32,000 nucleotides of DNA from Delftia acidovorans NBRC 14950. GTDB taxonomy: Bacteria > Pseudomonadota > Gammaproteobacteria > Burkholderiales > Burkholderiaceae_C. This document shows, piece by piece, positions 20,279 to 27,908 of this stretch. The position numbers were made by a program, and so were the translations under genes. The stretch lies in the NCBI RefSeq assembly GCF_001598795.1, contig NZ_BCZP01000012.1, positions 90,001 to 122,000 on the forward strand, written 5' to 3'. Under the pieces are notes generated by a model. That model did no database searches, was not told the origin of the DNA, and worked only from the letters and a program-made list of their open reading frames with translations. Position 1 is the first letter of the stretch; each line of letters begins with the position of its first letter.

Positions 20279-20306
20279 GTTGTCGATTCCTCACCTCCCC
20301 CCGGCC

Positions 20307-21641
20307 ATGCCCACCCCTTCCGCCTCCTGGACCGCTGCGCGCTGGCACCAGCTTTTCTGTGCCTGCCAGCAGCAACTGGTGTCCTATCTGGCCGGCAAGA
20401 CCGGCAGCCGTGATGAGGCGCAGGAACTGGCCCAGGAAACCTGGCTGCGCCTGGCCGATGCGCCGCCGCAACTGCCCGATGGCAGCTCGCCCACGCTCGA
20501 AGCCGCGCGGGCCTACCTGTTTGCAACGGCCAAGCATCTGGCGATAGACAGGCTGCGCCAGCGCGGTGCGCAGCAGCGCTGCATGGACGACTGGGCGCAA
20601 TTGCAGCCCGGGGCCGAAGGCGATGTGGCCGACCGCGCCATGTACCGCCAAGCGCTGGCCGTGGTGGAGCGCACGATTGCCGGCCTGCCCGAGCGCATGC
20701 AGGCCGCCTTGCTGGCACACCGCCTGCATGGCGAGCGGCAGGCCGACATCGCCCGGCGTCTGCAGGTCTCCCTGAACACCGTGGAGCGCGACCTGATGCA
20801 GGCCGATGCCTGCCTGGAAGCCGCCTTGCTGCGCTGGCGCGGCGGGGTGGAGGCGGGCTTGCAGGCCTCTTCCAGAAAGCGGCGGCGGCGTGCCCTGGGT
20901 GCGCTGCTGGGCGTGGCCGGCATGGCCTGCACGGCCTGGCCCGCCTGGCAGATGTGGAGCCGCCGCGTGCTGTGGCAAGGTGAACTGGCCAGCGCCACGG
21001 GCGTGCAGCGCAGCCTGGAATTGCCCGATGGCAGCGTACTGCGCGTGGACGCCGCCAGCCGCGTGGCGCTGACCTACCGTGCCCACCTGCGACAGGCACG
21101 GCTGCTGGAAGGCGCCGCCTTCTTTGCCGTGGCCCGCGATGCGGCACGGCCCTTTGTGGTGGAGGCCGGCCCCCTGCGCGTGACCGTGCTGGGCACGCGC
21201 TTTGGTGTGGAACTGGAGCCCGATGCGGTGCGGGTGCAGGTGGAGTCGGGCCAGGTGCGGGTGGAGCATGCGGCCACCGGACGCAGCCAGTTGCTGCAGG
21301 ACAGCCAGTCGCTGCGCATTCCCCTGGACGGCGGCGAAGGAGATGCCGATGGCGCTGCATGGCAACCGCAGCTCCAGCAACGGCCTGCGGCCTGGCGCGA
21401 GGGCGAACTGGTCTTCGAACAGGAACCGCTGGGCCGCGTCGTCCACCGGCTGGGCCGCTACACGCGGCGCCGCCTGGTGATGGAGGAGGGCGCGGCGCAA
21501 CTGGCCATCAGCGGCCATGTGCGCATTGCCCAGACCGAGCGATGGTTGCGCGGGCTGCCGCAGTTCGCCCCGGTGCAGGTCAGCGTGCTGGACGACGGCG
21601 GCCTGCGGATTGCGCGGCGCGGCGGGCGCGCGGAGCCGTGA
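20307..21641 (+). CDS. Single-polypeptide ECF sigma factor (FecI-type) fused to a FecR-type transmembrane sensor (IutY-like sigma/anti-sigma hybrid)
   Basis: Track ORF 20280..21641 (TTG), trimmed to the ATG at 20307. Sigma region 2 is EAQELAQETWLRL and the region 4 HTH is QADIARRLQVSLNTVERDL. An Arg-rich stop-transfer (SSRKRRRRA), a TM segment (LGALLGVAGMACTAWPAW) and a FecR domain follow (LELPDGSVLRVDAASRV...LLEGAAFFAVARDAARPFVVEAG.LRVTVLGTRFGV). All lie in one uninterrupted frame. Confidence 0.8.
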   Translation: MPTPSASWTAARWHQLFCACQQQLVSYLAGKTGSRDEAQELAQETWLRLADAPPQLPDGSSPTLEAARAYLFATAKHLAIDRLRQRGAQQRCMDDWAQLQPGAEGDVADRAMYRQALAVVERTIAGLPERMQAALLAHRLHGERQADIARRLQVSLNTVERDLMQADACLEAALLRWRGGVEAGLQASSRKRRRRALGALLGVAGMACTAWPAWQMWSRRVLWQGELASATGVQRSLELPDGSVLRVDAASRVALTYRAHLRQARLLEGAAFFAVARDAARPFVVEAGPLRVTVLGTRFGVELEPDAVRVQVESGQVRVEHAATGRSQLLQDSQSLRIPLDGGEGDADGAAWQPQLQQRPAAWREGELVFEQEPLGRVVHRLGRYTRRRLVMEEGAAQLAISGHVRIAQTERWLRGLPQFAPVQVSVLDDGGLRIARRGGRAEP

Positions 21642-21746
21642 AGTTTTTTTCAGGGTTTTTGGGAGTGACTCGTATTTGCATATGAAAGGCCGGGCGCCCT
21701 GCCTGTGCCGGCGATTCGCAATGAGCCTGTCTTCCAGAAAGTCCTT

Positions 21747-24167
21747 ATGTCCGCTCCCAAGTCCTCCCGATTCCGCCTCCGTCTCCGCCGCACAGCGGTT
21801 TTTCATGCATGTGCAGGCCTGGTGCTGGGCCTGCAACTGCAGTTGGCCGCCGCGCAATCGGTGTCCTTCGACGTGCCGGCCCAGCCGCTGGCCCAGGCGC
21901 TGAGCCAGTTTGCGCGCCAGGCGGGGCTGCAGCTCACCTACTCCTCCGAACTGGTGCAGGGCCGGCAGGCCCCGGCGCTCAACGGCAGCCACGATGTGCG
22001 CCAGGGCCTGGCGGCATTGCTGCAGGGCAGCGGCCTGCAGGGGCGCATCGAGGGCGGCACGCTGACCCTGCTTCCCGCTGCGGCCCATGCGCCCGACAAC
22101 CTGCCGGAGAACGCGCACCGCCTGTCCGAGATCACCGTGACGGCCGGCGACCAGTATGTGAGCCTGCTGCCCGCACCCTACGCCGGCGGGCAGGTGGCCA
22201 AGGGCGTGCGCCTGGGCGTGCTGGGCAATACCGGCAACATGCAGGCGCCGTTCAGCACCACCAGCTACACGTCCGAGGCCGTGCGCAACCAGCAGGCCGG
22301 CACCATTGCCGAGGCGGTGAACCGCGACCCTTCCGTGCGCTACACCGTGCTGCCGGGCGGCAACGTGGACAACCTCTATATCCGGGGCTTTCCGATCTGG
22401 GAAGGCAACTCGGGCGAGATCGCCTTTGACGGCATCTACGGCATTGCCCCCAACTACCGCGTGCGCACCGAGTACGTGGACCGCATCGAGGTGGTCAAGG
22501 GGCCGGGCGCGCTGCTGTTCGGCATGTCGCCCAACGGCTCGGTGGGCGGGGTGATCAACATCGCGCCCAAGCGCGCCAATGAAGATGTGGCGCGGCTGAC
22601 CACGGGCTGGACTTCGGACAGCCTCTGGCGTGCCCACGCCGACGTGGGCCGGCGCTTTGGCGACGAGGCCCAGTACGGCATCCGCGTGAATGCCAGCAAG
22701 TACGGCGGCGATACGTCCATGGACCATCAAAGCACCGATGGCCATGTGCTGGCCGTGGCGCTGGACTACGAGGTGGAGCGCTTCCGTGCCACGCTGGACC
22801 TGCTCTCGCAGGACGAGCGCATCGACGGCGTGGGCCGGCCCATCATGCCCACGGGGCTCACCTCCATGCCCGCCGCGCCGGATGGCCGGCGCAACGTGAC
22901 CCAGCCCTGGGAATGGTCCAAGAATCGCGAGCGCGCCGTGCTGCTGCGCACCGAACTGGACCTCACGCAGCAGCTCACGCTGTTCGCCAACATCGGCCAG
23001 TCGCGCGCCGATGTGGACCGCATCTACGACTCGGCCCCGCGCCTGACCAGTGCGGCAGGCGCCACCAGCATCACGCCCACCTACGCGGTGTTCGACGTGG
23101 ACCGCAGCACCATCGACGCGGGCCTGCGCTCGCGCTTTGCGCTGGCCGGTGTCAAGCATTCGGTCACGCTGCAGCTGGCCAGCTACCGCGAGGATTTTCA
23201 CCGCGCGCTGCAGGCGGGCTCCACCGTGGTGTCCAACATCTATGCGCCCATTGCCCACGCGCCGCAGAGCATTGCGCGGCCTTCGGCCATTCCGCGCATC
23301 CACGACAACCGCAACACCAGCCTGGCGCTGGTGGACACGCTCTCGCTGCTGCAGGACAGGCTGCAACTGTCGCTGGGCCTGCGCCACCAGGCCATCAAGT
23401 CCACCAACTACAACGTGCTCACGGGCGGCGCCGCCAATGTCTACGACGAGCGCGTGACCACGCCGGCCGTGGGCGTGGTCTGGCGCCAGGCGCCGAACTG
23501 GAGCCTCTACGCCAACTACATCGAAGGCCTGAGCAAGGGCGACATCGCGCCGCCTGCGGCCAGCAACTACGGCGAGGTGCTGCGCCCCTACAAGAGCCGC
23601 CAGTACGAAGTGGGCAGCAAGTACGACTTCGGCAGCTTCATGGCCACGGCCGCCCTGTTCAGCATTGAAAAACCCAGCGGCGGCCTGGACCAGGGCGTCT
23701 ACAAGACCAATGGCGAGCAGCGCAACCTGGGCATGGAGCTGTATGCCTACGGCGAGGCCGCGCGCGGCCTGCGCCTGCTCGGTGGCGTGACCTGGCTCAA
23801 GCCCGAGATCACGCGCTCGGCCACGCCTGCGCTGGTGGGCAACCGGCCCATCGGCACCTCGCGCCTGCTGGCCAACCTGGGCGTGGAATGGGATGTGCCC
23901 GCTCTTGAGGGCCTGACCCTGGTCGGCGACCTGGCCTACACCGGCGCCCAGTTTGTGGACCAGGCCAACCGCCTGCGCATCCCGGGCTGGACACGCACCG
24001 ACCTGGGCCTGCGCTATGCCACCCGCATCGCAGGCCGCAAGACCACGCTGCGCGCCACGGTGCAGAACGTGGCCGACCGCAAGGCCTGGGCCGGTGTCAC
24101 GTCCTGGGGCGCGGTCTCGCCGATGATTCCGCGCACCTTCGTGGTGTCGGCTTCGGTGGATTTCTGA
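21747..24167 (+). CDS. TonB-dependent siderophore receptor/transducer with an N-terminal signalling (STN) domain
   Basis: Track ORF 21705..24167 (GTG), trimmed to the ATG at 21747. The signal peptide ends in AAAQS. The STN-like segment is FDVPAQPLAQALSQFARQAGLQLTYSSELVQGRQAPALNG. Plug and barrel motifs are present, and the protein ends in the aromatic terminus SASVDF. Confidence 0.9.
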   Translation: MSAPKSSRFRLRLRRTAVFHACAGLVLGLQLQLAAAQSVSFDVPAQPLAQALSQFARQAGLQLTYSSELVQGRQAPALNGSHDVRQGLAALLQGSGLQGRIEGGTLTLLPAAAHAPDNLPENAHRLSEITVTAGDQYVSLLPAPYAGGQVAKGVRLGVLGNTGNMQAPFSTTSYTSEAVRNQQAGTIAEAVNRDPSVRYTVLPGGNVDNLYIRGFPIWEGNSGEIAFDGIYGIAPNYRVRTEYVDRIEVVKGPGALLFGMSPNGSVGGVINIAPKRANEDVARLTTGWTSDSLWRAHADVGRRFGDEAQYGIRVNASKYGGDTSMDHQSTDGHVLAVALDYEVERFRATLDLLSQDERIDGVGRPIMPTGLTSMPAAPDGRRNVTQPWEWSKNRERAVLLRTELDLTQQLTLFANIGQSRADVDRIYDSAPRLTSAAGATSITPTYAVFDVDRSTIDAGLRSRFALAGVKHSVTLQLASYREDFHRALQAGSTVVSNIYAPIAHAPQSIARPSAIPRIHDNRNTSLALVDTLSLLQDRLQLSLGLRHQAIKSTNYNVLTGGAANVYDERVTTPAVGVVWRQAPNWSLYANYIEGLSKGDIAPPAASNYGEVLRPYKSRQYEVGSKYDFGSFMATAALFSIEKPSGGLDQGVYKTNGEQRNLGMELYAYGEAARGLRLLGGVTWLKPEITRSATPALVGNRPIGTSRLLANLGVEWDVPALEGLTLVGDLAYTGAQFVDQANRLRIPGWTRTDLGLRYATRIAGRKTTLRATVQNVADRKAWAGVTSWGAVSPMIPRTFVVSASVDF

Positions 24168-24772: not shown

Positions 24773-26077
24773 TCAGCCGAACAGGCGCGACCAGAATCCG
24801 CCTTTTCCACCCACCTGCTGCCGGGCTCCCTGCATGTGGGCGCGTATGCCGAGCAATTGGGCATCGCCCGGATCGTGGCGCAGGGCGATCTCGACCAGTT
24901 CAGGCTGAAGGTGCGAGGCCTTGAGCTGGCCCAGGGCCCTGAGGGCGGTGACCTTGTGCGCATGAACGAAGCTCATGCTGCGAACTTCCCATTGCGCCTG
25001 CTGTTGCTGCGGCGAAAGCTGCGCATAGCGGCGCTCGGCTTCGGCCACGATGTCGAGGACGTCCTGGTGGTGGCCGGTCTCGTTGAGATAGGCGCATGCG
25101 GTCTGCGCGCAGTCCAGATGCAGGCCGGTGTCAAGCGCGTAGTCCTCCATCAGCAGCAGTGACAGGTCGGTGGCTTGCTTGCGGTTCCCCAGTTGCCGAT
25201 AGGCATGGCGCAGGTTTTCCAGCAGGGCCTGGAAACAGGTCTGCTGCAGCCCGGCTTCGAGGACGGCTGCCGCCTGCTCGTACTGTTCATGTGCGTTGTA
25301 CAGCACGCCCAGGTTGTTGCAGCACATGGCATAGGTGTGGATGTCCAGCGCGGCGGGCGCGGCCTCCTGGCCGTTTGCCGGCGTGCCGGCGCTGGCGAAG
25401 CGCTCCAGACAGCGTTCGTAGAGTGTGGTCTGCAGGCGCTCGATTTCCTGCAGGGCCGCTGCATCCGTGTCGGGGCGCTTCCACTTGCCCACGGTCACGC
25501 CGGCCGTGTAGTAGTCGGGTGCCGCCGGGCTATCAGCCAACTCGGGATAGGAAAAGATGCTGCGCCAGGGCACGGCATGCTCCATCTCGAAAATGCGGGC
25601 TTGCAAGTCCACCTGGGGCTGCAAGGCATGAGACTTGCGGTAGGCGGCCAGCGCGGGCTCGGGTTCGTCCAGCCAATAGTGGGCACTGCCCAAATAGCGG
25701 TGTCCATAGGCATTGCCTGGTGACATTGCCAGTGCGCGCTGCGCCCATTCGCCGACTTGGCGCAATGCCGCACTGCGGTCCTCGGTGAATTGGTCACTGG
25801 AATCGAGATACACCAGGCACAGCATCAGCCATGACCATTCGCTACCCTGGCCTGATTCGGCAGTGGCCTGAATGCTGGTCAAGAGGCTGGCAATCGCTTC
25901 GTTGTCCAGATGGCTGAAAACCGTGGTGCCGGCCCATAGCGCATGCATGCGCGCGTGGTCGCCCTGGCTGAAGGAATGCATTCCTTGGGAAATCAGTCGG
26001 TCCATGGTCTGTTGGGAATATTGTGGGAGGCGCCATCGTATCCGCTGTGTTTGACAGGAGGATGGGGCATCACTCAA
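24773..26077 (-). CDS. Hypothetical helical-repeat (TPR-like) protein. The start is uncertain: TTG at 26077 or ATG at 26005.
   Basis: Track ORF. Tyr/Leu/Ala-rich helical-repeat composition (e.g. NLGVLYNAHEQYEQAAAVLEAGL, AYGHRYLGSAHYWLDEPEPALAAYRKS). No signal peptide, and no convincing Shine-Dalgarno sequence at either start. Confidence 0.6.
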   Translation of the reverse strand: MSDAPSSCQTQRIRWRLPQYSQQTMDRLISQGMHSFSQGDHARMHALWAGTTVFSHLDNEAIASLLTSIQATAESGQGSEWSWLMLCLVYLDSSDQFTEDRSAALRQVGEWAQRALAMSPGNAYGHRYLGSAHYWLDEPEPALAAYRKSHALQPQVDLQARIFEMEHAVPWRSIFSYPELADSPAAPDYYTAGVTVGKWKRPDTDAAALQEIERLQTTLYERCLERFASAGTPANGQEAAPAALDIHTYAMCCNNLGVLYNAHEQYEQAAAVLEAGLQQTCFQALLENLRHAYRQLGNRKQATDLSLLLMEDYALDTGLHLDCAQTACAYLNETGHHQDVLDIVAEAERRYAQLSPQQQQAQWEVRSMSFVHAHKVTALRALGQLKASHLQPELVEIALRHDPGDAQLLGIRAHMQGARQQVGGKGGFWSRLFG

Positions 26078-26121: not shown

Positions 26122-26583
26122 TCAAAGCCCCGTCAACTGCGGCAATGCCTTCTCGCAGGCCTTGCGGCACAGGTAGCGCAGGTCCTGTTCACCATCTTCA
26201 CTGCGCAGGTAGCCGGCACCGGCGGCGTTGATGTTCCATTCATAGACCTTGCCCGAGCGCAGCAGCCGTCCGCTGAAACTGCAGGGCAGGATGATGGATT
26301 CCTCGTGGAAGCTGCCAGCCGAAACTTGCTTTGCCGTCGCGAAATAGCGGGCCACGTCGGCGGCGTCCAGGCTGACTTTCTCGCATCCCATGGTCTCGCC
26401 CGTGCCCACGGAACGGGTGACCGGGCCGATGACGGAAATGGGTACCGCCTTGGCAGCGTGTTTGGGCGTGGATGTGGAAGTAGATGAGGCCTGCAGCGGC
26501 GCATGCAGGCACAGCATCACGGCAGCCCAGGCGGCAATGCGCAGGCTGCGAGAGGGATTGTTGAAAAGCTGGCTGGATGGCAT
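26122..26583 (-). CDS. Signal-peptide-bearing 153-aa protein, candidate periplasmic immunity protein for the adjacent amidase
   Basis: The signal peptide is LRIAAWAAVMLCLHAPLQA/SS and the mature part has four cysteines. The ATG at 26583 lies 3 nt after the amidase TGA (TGA GCC ATG). The function is inferred from gene context only. Confidence 0.65.
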   Translation of the reverse strand: MPSSQLFNNPSRSLRIAAWAAVMLCLHAPLQASSTSTSTPKHAAKAVPISVIGPVTRSVGTGETMGCEKVSLDAADVARYFATAKQVSAGSFHEESIILPCSFSGRLLRSGKVYEWNINAAGAGYLRSEDGEQDLRYLCRKACEKALPQLTGL

Positions 26584-26586
26584 GGC

Positions 26587-27219
26587 TCAGGCTCCCGTGA
26601 AGATGTAGCGCAGCAATTGGGCGCCTTCGGTCGCTTCCTTGCGGGCAATGGCGCCGTGGGAGTAGACATCGGACAGAAGCTTGAGCTTGTAGTGGTCCAC
26701 CAATTGCTGGGTCAGCCATTTGGTCTGGAACAGCTGCGATTGGGTGGGCGCCTCGTAATCCTTGGTCGATGGCAGGAAACGGCCCACCACCTCGATGCCC
26801 ACGGAGTCGCTGTTGGCCGGATAACGCAACGGATAGGCCTTTGTGTTCTCGTGCGATGACACATTCTTGGCTCGCTTGCTGAAGCTCAGGCCCTTTTGGT
26901 GCAGCAGGGCATTGATGTTCTTGAGTTCCGTGGGATCGCAGGTGCTCTCGTTGACGCAGCGTGGCTGAAGAATTCCCACATGCCAGCAGATCTTTTCCAG
27001 ACTGGCGGTTTGTTAGATCTTCCCGTCCTTCTCGATCAGAAAGTGCGCCCCCGTCTTCTGGCCGCTCTTGTAGGCATTGAGCACGCTGGCTGCCGTGGAC
27101 GAGTCAGTGCGGTGTAGCACGATGGATGTGACGGACAGCAAGGCGCCGTGCTCTATGGATGGATAGGTCTTGACTTCGACGCTTTTGTCTACCATCAATC
27201 CTTTTTCGATAGTGGCCAA
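26587..27219 (-). pseudogene. Amidase_2 (AmpD/PGRP/T7-lysozyme fold) N-acetylmuramoyl-L-alanine amidase, no signal peptide, interrupted by one in-frame TAA at 27015..27013
   Basis: Track ORFs 27013..27219 and 26587..26979 are in the same frame. The read-through is ...SIVLHRTDS...GAHFLIEKDGKI*QTASLEKICWHVGILQ...SVGIEVVGRF...VYSHGAIARKEATEG. The IVLH.T, AHFLI..DG, WH.G, S.GIE..G and H-x-x-I-A-x-K-x-x-x-E-G landmarks match the Amidase_2 family. The second track ORF starts at a GTG inside the WHVG motif, so that is not a real start. A GGGAG Shine-Dalgarno sequence precedes the ATG at 27219. Confidence 0.75.
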
Positions 27220-27440
27220 TTATTTCTCCCTCTGTATTCCGGCTGAATGAATGCGAATGGCGGAAAGCCGGGAGAGCATACGTGGCAGAGGGATATGAAT
27301 GATTCAAAATGTACAATTCATGCCTGATTGGAAATATCTTGAAACAATTAAGGGGATTTATGAAGTCTTGATGAATGGTGAGCGCATGTGTTCATGTCTT
27401 TGCATCGGCCATGAAGTACCTCATGGCCTTGTACACCTGT

Positions 27441-27908
27441 CTAATGGGTTTTGATTTCGATGATCATTCCGAAGATAAACGCAATCCCCAACCCAAAAAT
27501 AGTGCCAAGAGAATTCAGGAAAATATATTCAAGATCCGTAGAAAACGGACCATTCATGGAAAAAATCAGAGAAATGCCAAGATATGGAATGGAGCCTGCG
27601 ATGGCTCCATAAATCGAAAGATTCAATAGTGTCAAAAGGTTGTGTTTATTCAGCATGAATATGCCAGGCAGACCCAGAATGACGAAGCCTGTATAGCTGC
27701 AGGCCCAAATCGGGAAGATCAGCAAGCCGATCCAGCTGTCCCCGCTGATTCTTGCTGTGGCAAGAATTGCCAATATCACCGCGGGGAAAAATGGCGCAGC
27801 CAAGCATGCGGCAAGCATTCTGGGCGTAATGCAGATAAATGATTGAGTCTGCAACTCATGGGCGTCTGGCCTGACGGAATTCATCCGTTGCGGAATCATT
27901 TTTTCCAT
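27441..27908 (-). CDS. 155-aa four-TM membrane protein, hypothetical (AT-rich)
   Basis: Track ORF with four clear hydrophobic helices (e.g. WIGLLIFPIWACSYTGFVILGLPGIFML and FLNSLGTIFGLGIAFIFGMII). Not similar to the 167-aa paralogs. The true start among several Met codons is uncertain. Confidence 0.55.
   Translation of the reverse strand: MEKMIPQRMNSVRPDAHELQTQSFICITPRMLAACLAAPFFPAVILAILATARISGDSWIGLLIFPIWACSYTGFVILGLPGIFMLNKHNLLTLLNLSIYGAIAGSIPYLGISLIFSMNGPFSTDLEYIFLNSLGTIFGLGIAFIFGMIIEIKTH

Follow-up and report, generated by a model that had tools for sequence, protein, structure and literature searches.

A nonsense codon in an Amidase_2 gene beside an intact exported partner: a probable orphan effector/immunity pair in Delftia acidovorans

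What should be made of a cell-wall amidase gene that is interrupted by a single stop codon and followed directly by an intact gene for a small exported protein? Such a locus lies on the minus strand of a 32,000-nucleotide stretch of Delftia acidovorans NBRC 14950 (contig NZ_BCZP01000012.1, positions 90,001 to 122,000; the whole stretch is called here the window, and its own numbering is used throughout). A first-pass annotation, made from the letters of the window, had proposed that an Amidase_2 enzyme was killed by one in-frame TAA and that its neighbor was kept as the immunity protein of a secreted antibacterial pair. We consider it probable that positions 27219..26122 are an orphan two-gene antibacterial effector/immunity module, in which the toxin gene is broken by the TAA and the immunity gene is intact.

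The lesion itself is simple. The open reading frames (ORFs) 27219..27013 (68 residues, TTG start) and 26979..26587 share one minus-strand frame, and the TAA at 27015..27013 is the sole interruption of the frame 27219..26587, as had been stated. Reading through the stop restores every landmark motif that the annotation had quoted: IVLHRTDS, AHFLIEKDGKI, the stop, QTASLEKICWHVG, SVGIEVVG and SHGAIARKEATEG. A GGGAG Shine-Dalgarno sequence lies about 7 nt 5′ of the TTG, and the position of the start is consistent with the conserved N-terminus of the family, M-A-T-I/V-E-x-G. The annotation had also guessed that the stop replaced a TAT or TAC codon, and had suggested looking for an intact codon in orthologous loci. 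Codon 69 is intact, and TAC (Tyr), in all six related sequences compared: a JGI metagenome contig (L009), an ENA contig (L010), Delftia tsuruhatensis NBRC 16741 (L012) and three Delftia-like contigs (L095, L096 and L097). The products of the last three are identical to the repaired window amidase, with Y at the position of the stop. Since all six relatives carry TAC, and since L010 matches the window on either side of the codon, the stop is explained by one C-to-A event on the coding strand (G-to-T at 27013 of the plus strand). The six alleles show directly that the window carries an Amidase_2 gene typical of the family and intact but for one nonsense codon.

Compared between the window and L012, the amidase has a dN/dS (the ratio of nonsynonymous to synonymous substitution rates) of 0.04 and the partner one of 0.09, a sign of strong purifying selection on the pair up to the present. 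Seven amidase positions differ between the window and the five full-length alleles; two of the differences are common with L010, which leaves five private substitutions (G/C-to-A at nt 60, 129, 207, 258 and 348 of the amidase ORF; window 27013..27160). Each of the five puts an A in the third codon position; one creates the stop, and the other four are synonymous. The pattern suggests that mutation in this lineage is biased towards AT. Relative to the full-length alleles the window amidase has no frameshift, and no private nonsynonymous change besides the stop. As no further defect followed the stop, we are dealing either with an erroneous base or with an inactivation that happened very recently.

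The latter alternative, in which the TAA is a sequencing or assembly error and the strain has an intact, working pair, draws on the same facts: the lesion is a single base substitution, strong purifying selection acts on an otherwise undamaged gene, and TAC is found in all six relatives. Even so, we hold it to be unlikely. The surrounding genes (for the TPR protein, the TonB receptor, EamA and LysR) align at 97% with those of the relatives and are undisrupted, so the assembly is not generally faulty. Four like private changes, to A in the third position and synonymous, are present in the same gene, and beside these a fifth genuine G/C-to-A change would be nothing out of the ordinary. Moreover, the same decay, a broken amidase beside an intact partner, has occurred independently in three other genomes, by a frameshift in L040 and by a stop in L061 and in L085. 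We take the TAA to be a real mutation. It should be noted that the earlier word "killed" presupposes this: the single nonsense codon in an intact gene stands, whereas the loss of the amidase holds only if the TAA is not a base-call error. If it holds, the truncated product of 68 residues cannot be active, because it retains only H36 of the three likely metal ligands.

What would the repaired gene encode? With Tyr in place of the stop, the protein matches Pfam Amidase_2 (PF01510) over residues 29-192, spanning the stop (E 1.2e-21; 77.8 bits against a gathering cut-off of 26), and Amidase_2 is its only significant Pfam domain. The sequence search of the PDB gave only a marginal match to AmpD (E 0.059), for which reason a fold search was needed. 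An AlphaFold2 model was made of a 99%-identical intact allele (predicted local distance difference test, pLDDT, 97.1). Foldseek, which the first-pass annotation had recommended for both proteins, matched this model to AmpD, PlyL, AmpDh2/3, AmiD, PGRPs and T7 lysozyme with a probability of 1.0 at 13-20% identity, the TM-scores being 0.6-0.7 when normalised to the target. All of the fold matches were of the Amidase_2/PGRP type, and the model supports a confident assignment of the repaired window protein to the Amidase_2 fold.

Five conserved residues would fit the roles expected in an active enzyme. None of H36, E143, H188, K194 and E198 varies among 48 family members, and all are kept in the window gene; H36, the Glu of the GIE motif and H188 align with their AmpD counterparts. 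From the alignment with AmpD, the likely zinc ligands are H36, H188 and E198, and E143 and K194 are likely to be catalytic. The third ligand would be Glu in the window family, where Asp or Cys is expected. Relative to AmpD, about 40-45 residues are inserted between WHVG and GIE, and they are modelled as helices (87-90, 96-106 and 113-125). An insertion of about 40 residues had been noted at first pass and called unusual; it is present, but "unusual" does not describe it, as it is conserved across the whole family. At its N-terminus the amidase is hydrophilic, and the model places beta strands there from residue 3 on, so that it has no signal peptide, in keeping with the first description.

The partner, a protein of 153 residues, begins almost where the amidase ends. 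The amidase stop TGA (26589..26587) is followed by 3 nt (GCC) and then by the ATG of the partner ORF (26583..26122), the spacing originally given. The N-terminus has a basic n-region, a hydrophobic stretch (IAAWAAVMLCL) and LQA/SS, as judged by eye, as were the signal peptides and lipoboxes of the partners in other loci. In the AlphaFold2 model the core (residues ~50-150) has pLDDT >90, whereas pLDDT is low over residues 1-45, with a disordered leader. Together with the signal peptides and lipoboxes of its relatives, these features agree with the Sec signal peptide that had been proposed. Four cysteines (C67, C101, C139 and C143) are conserved across the family. There is no C-terminal membrane segment. 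The partner has no match in Pfam, NCBIfam or PHROG, and the Foldseek comparison of its model with the PDB, also done as recommended, gave no fold match (best E 0.49).

The partner family is nevertheless large. Word-indexed searches gave only 19-29 relatives, and a full HMMER scan was needed: the partner profile then found 1,180 cluster representatives (50% identity) at E <= 0.001, of which 412 were at E <= 1e-10. Most of these proteins have 120-145 residues, and some have two or three tandem copies of the domain. An apparently truncated partner in D. acidovorans CP058970 (called at 89 residues) was set aside as a difference in gene calling only, since the DNA is that of the strains with full-length calls bar one silent base. 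In the window strain the partner is now preceded by about 430 nt of untranslated message, and because of this its expression may be lowered by polarity.

Comparative evidence on function comes from the relatives. A scan of one genome per species gave 351 amidase relatives, and 80 loci from other genomes were taken. In 77 of the 80, the ORF directly 3′ of the amidase belongs to the partner family and has the same orientation; among the three exceptions, one locus is cut short by the end of its contig. The pairing extends to amidases fused to Rhs or to XVIPCD, and nearly all partners in these loci bear a signal peptide or a lipobox. Most of the amidases are stand-alone proteins of 200-215 residues. 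The family is found in Beta- and Gammaproteobacteria, Acidobacteria and Myxococcota. Extra copies of the partner are found near the pair in Erwinia (L050:8909-9749), Variovorax (L066:11077-11514) and Cupriavidus (L082:11409-11831); together with the tandem-domain proteins, they are consistent with arrays of orphan immunity genes.

Several relatives are tied to delivery systems. The gene hcp, which belongs to type VI secretion systems (T6SS), ends directly upstream of the amidase in 11 of the 80 loci, which come from Variovorax, Erwinia, Rosenbergiella, Rouxiella, Cupriavidus and Caballeronia. A 60%-identical pair from Thiotrichaceae (L017:7919-16100) is found inside a T6SS cluster, in the order tssA-tssB-tssC-[pair]-tssC-tssE-tssF-tssG, with two tssC paralogs. 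One amidase is fused to a PAAR domain (P0101; 79.6 bits), and another forms the C-terminus of a Rhs/FG-GAP protein of 1,873 residues in Corallococcus (L042). Amidases of Lysobacterales (40-45% identity) are fused to XVIPCD, with scores of 30-32 bits against a Pfam cut-off of 24.9 in the proteins scanned (P0110, P0112, P0114, L060, L064 and L074); the other such fusions (among L048, L058, L060, L062, L064, L072-L074, L077 and P0110-P0114) were presumed from ORF length. XVIPCD is usually described as C-terminal, whereas in the fusions scanned it is N-terminal, profile positions 1-98 falling within residues 10-150. VgrG was considered as an upstream neighbor in loci of Burkholderia, Rouxiella and Pseudomonas, where the large ORFs turned out to be an amidohydrolase, an M3 peptidase and a permease. 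The first-pass annotation had read the window pair as effector and immunity protein from its gene arrangement; the constancy of the pairing and the ties of the amidase relatives to delivery systems support that reading.

We propose the following scheme for the effector/immunity module. The first gene would encode a signal-less, zinc-dependent N-acetylmuramoyl-L-alanine amidase of about 23 kDa with the Amidase_2 fold. When intact, the enzyme would most likely be exported by a T6SS, and because of its size it would probably travel as cargo in the lumen of the Hcp tube. In the neighbor's cell wall it would strip the stem peptides from the glycan strands. The second gene would encode a Sec-exported, probably disulfide-bonded periplasmic protein that binds and blocks the amidase and so shields the producer and its kin. 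In the present strain the C-to-A change of Tyr69 (TAC) to TAA would have left the toxin dead. The immunity gene, intact and with a ribosome-binding site of its own, would still protect against the same toxin delivered by relatives. The enzymatic specificity, the delivery route in Delftia and the inhibition by the partner are the parts of this scheme that we infer. T6SS loci have been reported in 15 of 15 D. tsuruhatensis genomes analysed (PMC9045143).

One parallel is with the T6SS pairs Tae1-4/Tai1-4 (e.g., Tse1-Tsi1 and Ssp1-Rap1a), in which a small signal-less amidase is likewise followed by an exported periplasmic immunity protein. As in the window family, many of these pairs are orphans or hcp-linked, the toxins are of a size suited to Hcp cargo, and the immunity genes outlast the effectors. 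The Tae1-4 enzymes are cysteine peptidases of the NlpC/P60/CHAP type and cut within or between stem peptides. The window amidase, in contrast, has the predicted zinc Amidase_2 fold and is expected to cleave the bond between N-acetylmuramic acid and L-alanine (MurNAc-L-Ala), and between its partner and the solved immunity proteins no similarity of sequence or fold was detected. Membership in Tae1-4 was rejected, as the NlpC/P60/CHAP-type domain is absent, only Amidase_2 being found in Pfam and only Amidase_2/PGRP folds among the structural matches.

A second parallel is offered by effectors of the Xanthomonadales killing type IV secretion system (T4SS), the X-Tfes. A 2019 review lists Amidase PF01510 among the X-Tfe domains (PMC6536674), and the Lysobacterales relatives of the window amidase carry XVIPCD and are followed by the same partner family. 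The window protein differs in having no XVIPCD, which in the relatives is N-terminal. As its only domain is Amidase_2, and XVIPCD is confined to the Lysobacterales relatives, the window amidase was not retained as a candidate T4SS effector. Our literature search found no experimental work on amidase X-Tfes related to the window protein.

Some observations weigh against an effector/immunity module and should be set out together. No gene of a T6SS or T4SS was found in the 32-kb window, neither hcp nor tssC among them; it holds only metabolic, transport and regulatory genes. Because there is no secretion gene in the window, the pair is an orphan in this strain, and the delivery route can here be only presumed. 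Most of the close relatives (Rhodanobacter, Delftia and Paracidovorax) are also orphan pairs amid housekeeping genes. The partner, as modelled, resembles no known immunity fold. We found no literature on the secretion or toxicity of any member of the family. The one published claim of an Amidase_2 effector of the T6SS, that for AmpDh3-PA0808, is disputed (Colautti et al. 2022, as cited in PMC9998450). Finally, the TAA could be a base-call error.

Several of these points would also fit a pair with a housekeeping or stress function, in which the enzyme, in the manner of AmpD, AmpDh2/3 or AmiD, serves recycling or autolysis and the exported protein is its periplasmic regulator. The fold is the same as that of AmpD and AmpDh2/3, database names such as "AmpD" are found on homologs, and most close relatives are orphan pairs in housekeeping neighborhoods. 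The most comparable case is AmpDh3-PA0808 of Pseudomonas aeruginosa, also a signal-less Amidase_2 enzyme with a small downstream gene in the same operon. Wang et al. (2020) put it forward as an effector/immunity pair of the T6SS, a role that Colautti, Bullen and Whitney (2022) disputed, both as cited in PMC9998450. Structures of AmpDh3 (4bxd and 4bxj) are among the fold matches of the window amidase, with only 19-20% identity across the part of the fold that aligns; AmpDh3, whose solved chains have 254-255 residues, has no helical insertion at the position of that in the window amidase.

Still, a housekeeping function strikes us as very improbable. An AmpD-type recycling amidase was the reading that the first-pass annotation had set against its own; the repaired protein scores 34.7 bits with the NCBIfam AmpD model (NF008758), whose equivalog cut-off is 143, and only residues 54-83 are matched. 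Judged by this score and its context, the window amidase is not AmpD. With AmpD, AmiD, PlyL, T7 lysozyme and PGRPs it shares the modelled fold and, probably, the zinc-dependent MurNAc-L-Ala amidase chemistry. The window family differs from AmpD, AmiD, the endolysins and PGRPs in its helical subdomain of about 45 residues, in Glu at the position of the third ligand and in its low identity to them (13-20%); it is, in addition, obligately paired with an exported partner and falls below the AmpD cut-off. Also hard to reconcile with a housekeeping role are the patchy distribution, low GC and variable locus, the extra orphan copies of the partner, and the contexts of the module, which has been joined to PAAR, to Rhs and to XVIPCD and is found immediately 3′ of hcp as well as within a core T6SS cluster.

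A remnant of a phage lysis cassette, with an ORF of 155 residues as holin, the amidase as endolysin and the partner as a spanin-like lipoprotein, is scarcely credible: weak matches of the amidase to PHROG endolysins/amidases (best E 1.9e-12), the low-GC, membrane-protein-like ORF just upstream (27908..27441) and the lipoboxes of many partners are outweighed by the absence of PHROG matches for the partner and that ORF, by the lack of the ORF in L012, L095, L096 and L097, which keep the amidase-partner pair, by the lack of phage genes in the window and of a C-terminal membrane segment in the partner, and by the secretion-system links of the relatives.

For this strain, then, the effector/immunity module would mean that a weapon of competition was lost and the shield was kept, a small and ordinary event, and a very recent one. 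It is the pattern expected in the evolution of effectors and their immunity proteins. The pseudogene itself is ordinary, and the uncharacterised family of gene pairs is more interesting. The family joins a zinc Amidase_2 toxin to an antidote that is unnamed and has neither a Pfam model nor a structural match, and its attachments extend to at least three different delivery systems. It is widespread and, as far as our literature search showed, experimentally unstudied; that search also found no named Amidase_2 T6SS effector belonging to it, which is not proof of absence. We would give about even chances to the broader proposal that the amidase and its four-cysteine partner make up a widespread, experimentally uncharacterised effector/immunity superfamily, a module used by the T6SS (as Hcp-linked, PAAR-fused and in-cluster cargo), by Rhs toxins and by the Xanthomonadales killing T4SS (through an N-terminal XVIPCD). 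With AmpDh3 in dispute, it could be the first well-supported family of T6SS effectors with the Amidase_2 fold, and the immunity fold may be new. The family would offer a clean way to test whether enzymes of the Amidase_2 type truly act as T6SS effectors, which the AmpDh3 dispute has left open, a new inhibitor scaffold for cell-wall amidases of this class, and better annotation for the numerous genes that at present bear the label "AmpD" or "peptidoglycan recognition family protein".

The features of the locus are collected in Table 1. The pair has a GC content of 0.55-0.62 against 0.68-0.72 for the backbone, and so is lower in GC, as was first remarked. The gene order LysR, EamA, amidase, partner, TPR protein, flavodoxin and TonB-dependent receptor is common to the window and L095-L097, and the DNA is about 97% identical; on both grounds the window belongs to a Delftia chromosome and the pair is at an inherited position. 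No phage genes were found in the window, and a look for direct or inverted repeats and for promoter or terminator signals bounding an island gave nothing above chance.

Table 1. Features of the amidase-partner locus and its surroundings, in window coordinates.
Feature	Position	Strand	Remarks
Amidase_2 amidase gene, predicted antibacterial effector	26587..27219	minus	210 codons, interrupted at codon 69; same frame throughout
Premature TAA at codon 69	27013..27015	minus	Tyr (TAC) in all relatives aligned
Ribosome-binding region, GGGAG before TTG start	27220..27240	minus	sequence read; start fits family N-terminus
Amidase-partner junction	26584..26600	minus	amidase TGA 3 nt before partner ATG; partner GGGAG within amidase 3′ end
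Intact 153-residue partner, predicted periplasmic immunity protein	26122..26583	minus	signal peptide and ~100-residue core with four conserved Cys
Low-GC segment	27349..28048		~700 bp, GC 0.42-0.50, between EamA and amidase
155-residue ORF	27908..27441	minus	multi-pass membrane protein by sequence appearance
434-residue protein with weak TPR matches	24773..26077	minus	begins 45 bp 3′ of partner; GC 0.60-0.65
ORF with sigma and FecR domains	20280..21641		extracytoplasmic function (ECF) sigma domains (Sigma70_r2/r4) and FecR domain
The same ORF and the TonB-dependent receptor that follows	20280..24167		receptor with STN

The 155-residue ORF has no match in Pfam, NCBIfam or PHROG. It is present in the metagenome contig L010 at 94% protein identity and missing from L012 and L095-L097, where about 80-110 bp and a different C-terminus of EamA are found instead. 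It could be an orphan immunity gene or some other small insertion.

The TPR protein is 97% identical in L095-L097. With tblastn (E <= 1e-5) it was found neither in L012 nor beside the pair in any other genome. Its gene was considered as a part of the module and rejected, as it follows the pair in the closest Delftia-like loci only and not in the others. Further along, between the genes for flavodoxin and the receptor, L095 has a LysR-MFS gene pair that is missing from the window.

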